A stretch of DNA of 8,898 nucleotides from a virus. Taxonomy: Duplodnaviria; Heunggongvirae; Uroviricota; Caudoviricetes. How positions within the stretch are numbered: the stretch's first letter is position 1; each line of letters starts with the position of its first letter. The notes beneath the pieces were generated by a model. That model did not search any database. It was not told where the DNA came from and was given only the letters and a program-made list of their open reading frames with translations. Of this stretch, positions 3,290 to 4,859 are shown piece after piece. A program made the position numbers and the translations under genes. The stretch is taken from the IMG/VR virus record IMGVR_UViG_2657245544_000004; one strand, given 5' to 3'.

Positions 3290-4859
3290 TGGCATGGCCA
3301 TGAGCATTTTCACGTCCGCATCACCGTCTGCTGACGTCTGTGGCACGCCACCCTGTACCGCTGCCGGTGAATGGTTCGCCATGAAATGTTCAAACATGGC
3401 GGTTGTGGATGCAGAAACCGGTTCTGCCCTGCCTGAGGCTGCCGCCAGTACAGCCCGNNNNNNNNNNNNNNNNNNNNNNNNNNNNNNNNNNNNNNNNNNN
3501 NNNNNNNNNNNNNNNNNNNNNNNNNNNNNNNNNNACGGTCATCCCCGGACAGGCCGCCAGTTTTTCAGCCTGCGCCTCTGCCCCTTTTGCCTCATCCAGG
3601 GCCATAATCTGATCACGAAGTGAGGGTCCGGCATTCGCCTGCGGTGAAGCAGCCAGAATCGGACGGGCTTTTTCCACCGTCATCTCCGGCATCGCCGCCA
3701 GCGTTGCCGCCAGTTGTTCACGTCCTTTCGCCTCTTCACATGCCATAATGCGATCGGCTTCACTCTGCGCAGATACACCAGATTGTTGCGGTGCCGCCAC
3801 GGCCAGAATCGCCCGGGCCTGCTCAACGCTCATACCCTGTTGCCCTGCCAGCATCGTGGCCAGTTGTTCACGTCCTTTCGCTTCCTGACACGTCAGGATC
3901 CCCATCACTCGCTGGTTCTCCTGCGCGGCAGCCTCCGTTGCAGTTAATTGCGGCATAGTGCCTCCTGTATCGTGTGTGTTCAGCGTCGCAGCCATCACGC
4001 TGATGGCGTCCGACGCATTGATTAATTCATCCGCCAGTTCGGCCTCAATACCGGACTGACCTTCAAAAACGGCGGCCTCTGTTCCCATAACCGCATCCAC
4101 AGATAAACCGGTATACATCGCCACTTTTTCAGCAAACATCCGGCGCGCCGCATCAATGCGCTGCTGCATGTCCTGGCGAACCTTTGCTGGCAGGGATTCA
4201 AACTGATTGCCATCCACCTTGTGCGATCCGGCGTAAATCAGCGTGATATCCACACCGGCCTGTGCCAGATGACCGGCATAGCTGACATGGCCCATCATCA
4301 CCCCAATGGAGCCGATACGGGATGTCTGGGTAACCAGCCGTCGGGAGCAGGCCGATGCCAGTAACATGGCGGCTGAACAGGCCGTGTCATTGCACAGTGC
4401 CCAGACAGGCTTCAGCTGCCGGAGACGGTAAATCATGTCAGCGCAGTCAAACGCGCCGGTGGCCTGCCCGCCAGAACTGTCAATGTCCAGCAGTACGCCC
4501 CGTACCTGAGTGTCCGCCATTGCCTGCTGAAGACAGGCGACAATGCCGTCATAGCCAGTCATTCCGGAAAATGGCCGCATGCCACCCAGCCGGTGTACCA
4601 GCGTGCCGGTCACCGGCAGTACAGCAATACCGTTCACCACCCGGTAAACACGGGCAGGTCGTTTGCCTCCGGCCATGTACTCGTCCGTTTCAGCCAGCAT
4701 CCCGGGAGCGTCAAGCTGTACCTGCTGTTGCGGTACCGAAAGGCTTGCTGCGCCCATCTCACGCCCGAGCGCGCAAAAGAAAACCCGCGCATAGGCGGGC
4801 TCCAGAAGCAGCGGCTCATTGAATGCCGCAGCGATAATATGTGAAAGATTACGTCTCAC
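3290..4859 (-). CDS. C: Capsid maturation protease / minor capsid protein gpC-like (S49 peptidase family), with a Nu3-like scaffolding region in its C-terminal part; interrupted by an assembly gap
   Basis: GTG start at 4857-4859 with AGAGGAGA upstream. N-terminal two-thirds match lambda gpC by recall (AFNEPL.LEPAYARVFFCAL, NGIAVLPV.GTLV, SGMTGY.GI, GAFDCAD.I, KPVWAL.ND..CSA..LLASA.SRRLVTQT.R.GSIGVMM.H, ITLIY.GSHKVDGN, TEAAV..GQ). The track's frame stops at 3390, but crossing 77 Ns makes that frame unreliable. A different minus frame is open from the gap edge (3457) to a stop at 3287-3289, ending 38 nt before the D ATG, so I take 3290 as the more likely 3' end. Confidence 0.8.
3458..3534. other. 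Assembly gap (run of 77 N) inside the C/Nu3 coding region
   Basis: Directly visible as a run of n characters. Length is presumably an estimate, so the reading frame across it is undefined. Confidence 0.99.
3535..3912 (-). repeat. Intragenic tandem repeat of about 150 bp (about 50 aa), at least 3 copies, within the C/Nu3 scaffolding region
   Basis: Exact 23-mer gccagttgttcacgtcctttcgc at 3709-3731 and 3859-3881 (period 150). A diverged third copy near 3553-3610 runs into the gap. Protein copies: RVMGILTCQEAKGREQLATMLAGQQGMSVEQARAILAVAAPQ / RIMACEEAKGREQLAATLAAMPEMTVEKARPILAASPQ / QIMALDEAKGAEAQAEKLAACPGMT... Confidence 0.8.

Follow-up and report, generated by a model that had tools for sequence, protein, structure and literature searches.

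The virus record IMGVR_UViG_2657245544_000004 (Caudoviricetes), a DNA of 8,898 nucleotides (nt) that is called the window here, comprises the head-gene module of an Escherichia coli prophage, lambdoid and of the phage 21 type. One gene of this module encodes an S49 prohead protease, and the C-terminal approximately 200 amino acids (aa) of the protein are also made alone as a predicted scaffolding protein. In this scaffold part a tandem triplication of a unit of about 50 aa was found, and a run of 77 undetermined bases (N) cuts the third copy. The best explanation overall, which we regard as very probable, is that the three units are the Tri boxes of phage 21 and that the N run replaces only about 10 bp; that the units could serve the scaffold as contact modules is a proposal of lower confidence. 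For the window itself this is of little consequence, as it shows a long-annotated feature of the phage 21 type and a routine assembly gap.

The three consecutive units were read in the translation of positions 3535-3956 (minus strand), the C-terminal Nu3/gp6 part of the protein, and they share the motif (R)IM..(C).EAKGRE.LA..LA..P.MTVE.AR.ILAA.PQ. Unit 1 (NQRVMGILTCQEAKGREQLATMLAGQQGMSVEQARAILAVAAPQQS) is located at 3780-3920 (minus strand; hidden Markov model (HMM) envelope at residues 314-360) and unit 2 (EADRIMACEEAKGREQLAATLAAMPEMTVEKARPILAASPQAN) at 3633-3761 (minus strand; envelope at residues 367-409). Unit 3 (LRDQIMALDEAKGAEAQAEKLAACPGMT in the gap-cut translation) is located at 3419-3620 of the same strand, where the N run splits it into a first half at 3535-3620 and the last 13 residues at 3419-3457. 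The protein identities between the window units are 53-63%, and BLASTP of unit against unit gave E values of 2e-14, 1e-12 and 1e-9. The lambda Nu3 family profile, phrog_8399, matched with an E value of 9.6e-35 in three separate stretches, the best of them at profile positions 43-106. Both comparisons confirmed the three tandem copies of a scaffolding motif that a first-pass annotation had read from the letters of the window. That annotation had also named, as a check that could refute it, whether the segments are homologous beyond one exact 23-mer, and the E values between the units showed that they are. At the DNA level, a direct repeat of 94 nt was found at 3652-3745 and 3802-3895 with an identity of 73% and a spacing of 150. 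The self-identity over 3535-3912 was 0.51 at an offset of 150 and 0.42 at 141, compared to 0.26-0.33 at the other in-frame offsets tested. Since the copies are too diverged, Tandem Repeats Finder did not call the array in this region. The tandem triplication is genuine and far beyond chance.

As had been noted from the letters, units 1 and 2 share an exact 23-mer (GCCAGTTGTTCACGTCCTTTCGC), at 3859-3881 and 3709-3731, respectively, which encodes AKGREQLA. The match stops at the edges of both copies, and no longer exact repeat exists between the units. The 23-mer is absent from phage 21 and from a second relative (L002), in both of which the two units differ at several positions in this stretch. 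Only four complete E. coli genomes were seen to have the unit-2 version, all as partial matches to a junction probe described below. The 23-mer itself seems specific to a rare lineage, and its presence in both units could be due to intragenic gene conversion between them.

The triplication turned out to be an annotated feature of phage 21. A tblastn search of a phage collection recovered GenBank M81255, "Bacteriophage 21 head gene operon", in which gene 6 holds three repeat_region features, noted as "function unknown; putative". The Tri1 box (M81255 5542-5645) maps to 3787-3887 of the window with 94% identity and corresponds to unit 1, the Tri box (5682-5792) maps to 3639-3749 with 94% identity and corresponds to unit 2, and the Tri3 box (5823-5936) maps to the gap-cut 3535-3608 with 88% identity and corresponds to unit 3. 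Since these boxes map onto the window units, the finding is a rediscovery of an annotated feature, and the triplication is already known, by way of this GenBank annotation only. In the literature collection that was searched, no paper describing the Tri boxes or a domain function for Nu3 was found. We take M81255 to be the record of Smith & Feiss 1993.

The comparison with phage 21 extends to the whole gene pair. Genes 5 and 6 of phage 21 (the head-tail preconnector gp5 and the scaffold gp6) have the same lengths, 501 and 200 aa, as those of the closest complete relative of the window, the E. coli chromosome NZ_CP119441 (L001), which is 98.6% identical to the window over 3535-4100. The internal start, the ribosome-binding site (RBS), the three units and their order are as in the window, with unit DNA identities of 88-94%, and gp5/gp6 are 93.5% identical over Nu3. 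The window copy differs in being a prophage allele with approximately 93% DNA identity to phage 21, in having the exact 23-mer in units 1 and 2 where phage 21 differs at several positions, and in having its frame broken by the assembly gap. In a newer phage 21 record, OL657228 (L003), two 'CII binding site' features (TTGYN6TTGY) are annotated within gene 6 on the opposite strand, at 1506-1519 and 1740-1753, and one of them overlaps the start of Nu3. Both are probably no more than matches to the pattern.

The protease-scaffold gene, the homologue of phage 21 gene 5 and lambda C, occupies 3287-4859 on the minus strand. In translation it starts at 4859 and is broken by the N run, past which the stop codon (3287-3289) lies in another frame. 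The closest complete orthologue, of 501 aa, is annotated as an S49 family peptidase at 3242-4747 of L001; its gene is 95% identical to the window in DNA, and the window translation has the identical start and layout. The S49 (SppA/ClpP-like) peptidase domain makes up the N-terminal two thirds, as judged from the L001 orthologue (PF01343 at 2.1e-35; phrog_53, head maturation protease, at 8e-226). Nested in frame is the homologue of phage 21 gene 6 and lambda Nu3 at 3287-3956 (minus strand), which gives approximately 200 aa with the gap restored. Its ATG at 3956 aligns with the gene 6 start annotated for phage 21 in OL657228 and M81255. An AGGAGG sequence at 3961-3966 (minus strand), 4 nt upstream of this internal ATG, corresponds to the site that the phage 21 records give as the gene 6 RBS, so that a putative separate scaffold product has an internal start with its own RBS.

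Two other systems share this arrangement. Lambda gpC/gpNu3 is the same S49 protease with a nested C-terminal scaffold, encoded between the portal and the D/E genes. It carries one unit (residues 357-401 of gpC), as the first-pass annotation had stated, which is 62% identical to window units 1 and 2 and is preceded by a low-complexity stretch of approximately 50 aa that is absent from the window. The gpC homologue of Salmonella phage Gifsy-1 (STM2605, 498 aa) has three units at the same positions and 57% identity over the Nu3 part. Its unit 3 keeps the GRE motif, whereas the conserved R of this motif is lost from unit 3 of the E. coli lineage.

The full three-unit Nu3 was present in about 20 records of the phage collection, among them phage 21, 4A7, ev017, 1W, 3W, D2 and several PhiR phages, and none of these phage-21-type records had fewer than three units. 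When 1.84 billion cluster representatives were screened with a profile of the unit, 515 proteins matched at E<=1e-3. Among the best 150 representatives, 133 contained one unit, 11 two and 6 three. In the matches that were read, the usual place of a single unit was either an S49 protease-scaffold, about 40-60 aa ahead of its C-terminus, or a short open reading frame (ORF) resembling Nu3. Across the phage 21, Gifsy-1 and P0121 lineages, units at the same position are 74-84% (unit 1), 67-80% (unit 2) and 55-62% (unit 3) identical, compared to 40-67% for units at different positions. The units are thus closer to the Gifsy-1 unit at the same position than to their own neighbors, and the triplication is therefore old. 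By this sequence comparison, it predates the split of these E. coli and Salmonella lineages, with all three units kept since. The arrays of P0126, P0131 and P0132, with near-identical units, and that of the divergent P0168 look independent.

The length of the array varies in frame, in line with the recombinational variation that had been proposed for it, and the junctions of the variant alleles lie at short homologies or microhomologies. The 451-aa allele has a unit-1/unit-2 hybrid left by a 150-nt deletion, with its junction inside EAKGREQLA, in the stretch encoded by the 23-mer. Unit 2 is removed in the 452-aa allele, with a junction at PQ; the example of this allele came from a degraded O157:H7 prophage. 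A 57-nt deletion inside unit 2, between CTGGCGGC and CTGGCTGC, gives the 482-aa allele, and a 472-aa allele carries a further in-frame deletion. The 551-aa allele results from a 150-nt duplication joined at ATGAC.GTGGA. One protein of 657 aa (P0001) has a larger tandem duplication of 156 aa that includes the Nu3 start.

The frequencies of these alleles were determined in 5,426 complete E. coli genomes. A 566-nt query of the Nu3 region (window 3535-4100) was found at 2,918 places in 1,867 genomes, and a probe for the intact unit-2 segment that is absent from the 482- and 452-aa alleles was found at 2,853 places, or approximately 98% of the loci. The junction probes were 38-42 nt long, so that half-matches fell below the word size, whereas 100-nt probes joined the half-matches of intact alleles. 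The 482-aa junction was present in 56 genomes, the 452-aa junction in 1-2 genomes, and the 451-aa junction gave 0 exact matches, so that only about 58 variant loci were detected by the three junction probes. The four-unit allele of 551 aa was left out of these counts, because the junction base in the DNA obtained is N. Variation in array length is real but rare, and the array is very stable. In two further proteins, P0084 (721 aa) and P0087 (577 aa), the protease-scaffold is fused in frame, just past unit 3, to unrelated C-terminal sequence, which is possibly derived from tail fibres; these fusions point to prophage deletions ending just past the array.

Structure prediction of the repeat, another check that had been suggested, gave a small three-helix bundle for each unit. 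With 74 diverse homologous units as input, AlphaFold2 modelled a single unit with a predicted local distance difference test score (pLDDT) of 91.4 and a predicted template modelling score (pTM) of 0.74. The three helices span residues 2-14, 23-30 and 37-46, and each unit of approximately 40 aa is thereby predicted to fold alone. In a 140-aa fragment that holds units 1, 2 and the first half of unit 3, the three-helix pattern was repeated in units 1 and 2, and two helices were seen in the truncated unit 3. The pTM of this fragment was 0.41 and therefore gave no confident packing between units, and the models are consistent with an arrangement like beads on a string. No model of the repeat was found in Pfam or NCBIfam, and a sequence search of the PDB with the repeat gave no match at E<=10. 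Similarity in fold or sequence to the C-terminal coat-binding helix-turn-helix of P22-type scaffolding proteins was not found. Protein A domains and the GA modules of bacterial surface proteins are also tandem three-helix-bundle binding modules, a likeness to be read as a fold analogy only. The unit is a member of a conserved, uncharacterised domain family with neither a Pfam model nor a solved structure.

Of the recognisable sequence elements in Nu3-type scaffolds, the module recurs most widely; it is common to the protease and the scaffold, and this gene has it three times. The scaffolding activity of lambda Nu3, which promotes procapsid assembly and is removed by the protease, is known, and interactions of Nu3 with E, B, C and itself have been published (PMC3224144). 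In the mechanism we propose, the scaffold, and likewise the protease with its shared tail, would use the module as a contact element to bind a partner in the procapsid. This partner may be the portal, the major capsid protein or a second scaffold molecule. With three modules on flexible linkers, a single scaffold chain would be multivalent. That the module contacts E, B, C or Nu3, and that three copies give one chain several such contacts, is a plausible but not a firm proposal. The more general idea, in which the three-helix module would be the core element for partner binding in Nu3-type scaffolds and its copy number would set their valency, is put forward tentatively and is the more doubtful of the two. 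If it is true, the rare natural alleles would be a ready-made valency series for T=7 procapsid assembly, with unit numbers of 2, about 2.6, 3 and possibly 4. The rare in-frame deletion and duplication alleles are in any case possible natural variants for testing the role of the module in capsid assembly.

Several points weigh against the preferred explanation as a whole. In lambda, a single unit is enough for the assembly of a capsid of this kind. The 451-aa allele, with two units, and the 482-aa allele, with a truncated unit 2, were found in head modules that look intact, with all neighboring head and tail genes at full length. Taken together with the single unit of lambda, these variants indicate that a full set of three may be dispensable. 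The real contact with the capsid could lie in the extreme C-terminal tail, and the content of the gap in this genome is taken from relatives and was not read directly.

In the strongest alternative, the three units are tolerated duplicates or a neutral spacer without a role in valency, and one unit suffices as in lambda. The prevalence of single-unit proteins among the best representatives agrees with it, as do the 451- and 482-aa alleles and the loss of the conserved R of GRE from unit 3 in the E. coli lineage. However, in the phages of both E. coli and Salmonella all three units have kept the motif and their positional identity, which speaks for selection acting on every unit. Nearly all E. 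coli loci retain the part of unit 2 that is missing from the 482- and 452-aa alleles, despite the capacity for in-frame deletion, and no record of the phage-21 type in the phage collection has fewer than three units. We consider a neutral spacer unlikely.

The tail that follows the array (VSASTTAMFEHFMANHSP...DVKMLMAMP; 3290-3418, minus strand) was compared with those of phage 21, Gifsy-1 and lambda, and of P0132 and P0121. Two recurring motifs were recognised by eye, FxxFM (AMFEHFMANHSP) and a terminal LLMxxP (MLMAMP). Their counterparts are AFDAFMQSHSP and LLMSIPG in Gifsy-1 and ALDRLMQGAP and LLNTPV in lambda, and others were seen in metagenomic homologues. On these motifs, the tail is a candidate capsid-targeting element.

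The remaining component of the preferred explanation is the content of the gap at 3458-3534. In L001, L002, phage 21 (L003) and PhiR5_1 (L006), the alignment breaks at the gap and restarts exactly 10 nt on, and L001 is 100% identical to the window in about 200 nt on each side. The filler in L001, read on the coding strand, is GGAGAATGCC, which completes GMT-VENA-RAV. Directly past the gap, the window continues with RAVLAAASGRAEP, the end of unit 3, and then with the C-terminal tail and the stop codon. As 77 is not divisible by 3, the two sides of the gap are read in different frames; when the 77 N were replaced with the 10 nt present in the relatives, an ORF of 501 aa was restored, the length of phage 21 gp5. 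The 10 nt in the relatives and the restored ORF argue that unit 3 is complete and that nothing is hidden. The first-pass annotation had described copy 3 as truncated by the gap; it is indeed cut by the N run, yet the rest of the unit resumes right after it and is not lost. From these alignments, the run appears to be an ordinary scaffold gap for about 10 bp, without further copies. Because an E. coli genome can contain up to five such prophage loci, the contig break likely resulted from branching between paralogous prophages.

The same annotation had instead named the collapse of the repeat in short-read assembly as the probable cause of the gap and had suggested that the true array may exceed three units. 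The gap does touch unit 3, an allele with a fourth unit (551 aa) is present in two protein clusters, and the 657-aa protein has its larger duplication. Against these, only 10 nt separate the flanks in four relatives, the flanks are identical to those of L001, and the second half of unit 3 lies directly past the gap. The units are 73% identical in DNA, and their longest exact match of 23 nt was judged too short to collapse in ordinary assemblies. The stated gap of 77 N is also shorter than one unit (150 nt). The four-unit allele (L013, LS992828.1) is an exact 150/150-nt duplication with a single N at the junction base in both copies (L013 7322-7323 and 7472-7473), the sole base that separates the unit-2 and unit-3 junctions, and may itself be an assembly artefact. 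A collapsed array with additional units is hence highly improbable, and neither the proposed cause of the gap nor the larger copy number was upheld. A chance or low-complexity resemblance in an Ala/Glu-rich tail has a negligible probability: the region is rich in A, E and Q and was passed over by Tandem Repeats Finder, but the unit-unit E values and the three independent Nu3 profile matches stand against it, the motif positions are conserved across hundreds of homologues, and the repeats had been recognised when phage 21 was annotated.

We also considered that the two sides of the gap had been joined as a chimera and rejected this, since each flank is 100% identical to one relative, L001, next to the gap and the boundary of the mosaic lies elsewhere. 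The window is a mosaic in which the portal gene, together with the N-terminal portion of gene C, resembles L002 (98.7%), while the region 3535-4100 is L001-like, with 98.6% identity compared to 93.7% to L002. From a comparison of 3535-6601 with 1038-3457, the boundary was placed inside gene C, upstream of the Nu3 part and not at the gap.

From Pfam matches on the window ORFs, the genes on the minus strand follow the order of lambda, with A (terminase), W, B (portal), C/Nu3, D (decoration protein), E (major capsid protein), FI, FII, Z and U. C/Nu3 has the Phage_portal_2 ORF upstream and the HDPD and Phage_cap_E ORFs downstream. At approximately 5454, in a T5 run, the portal gene (4849-6442, minus strand) contains a single additional T compared to the 1,593-nt portal gene of L002, from which it otherwise differs at only 2 positions. 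The extra T splits the portal ORF into 5387-6442 and 4849-5472, and could be either a homopolymer sequencing error of the draft assembly or a real inactivating frameshift.
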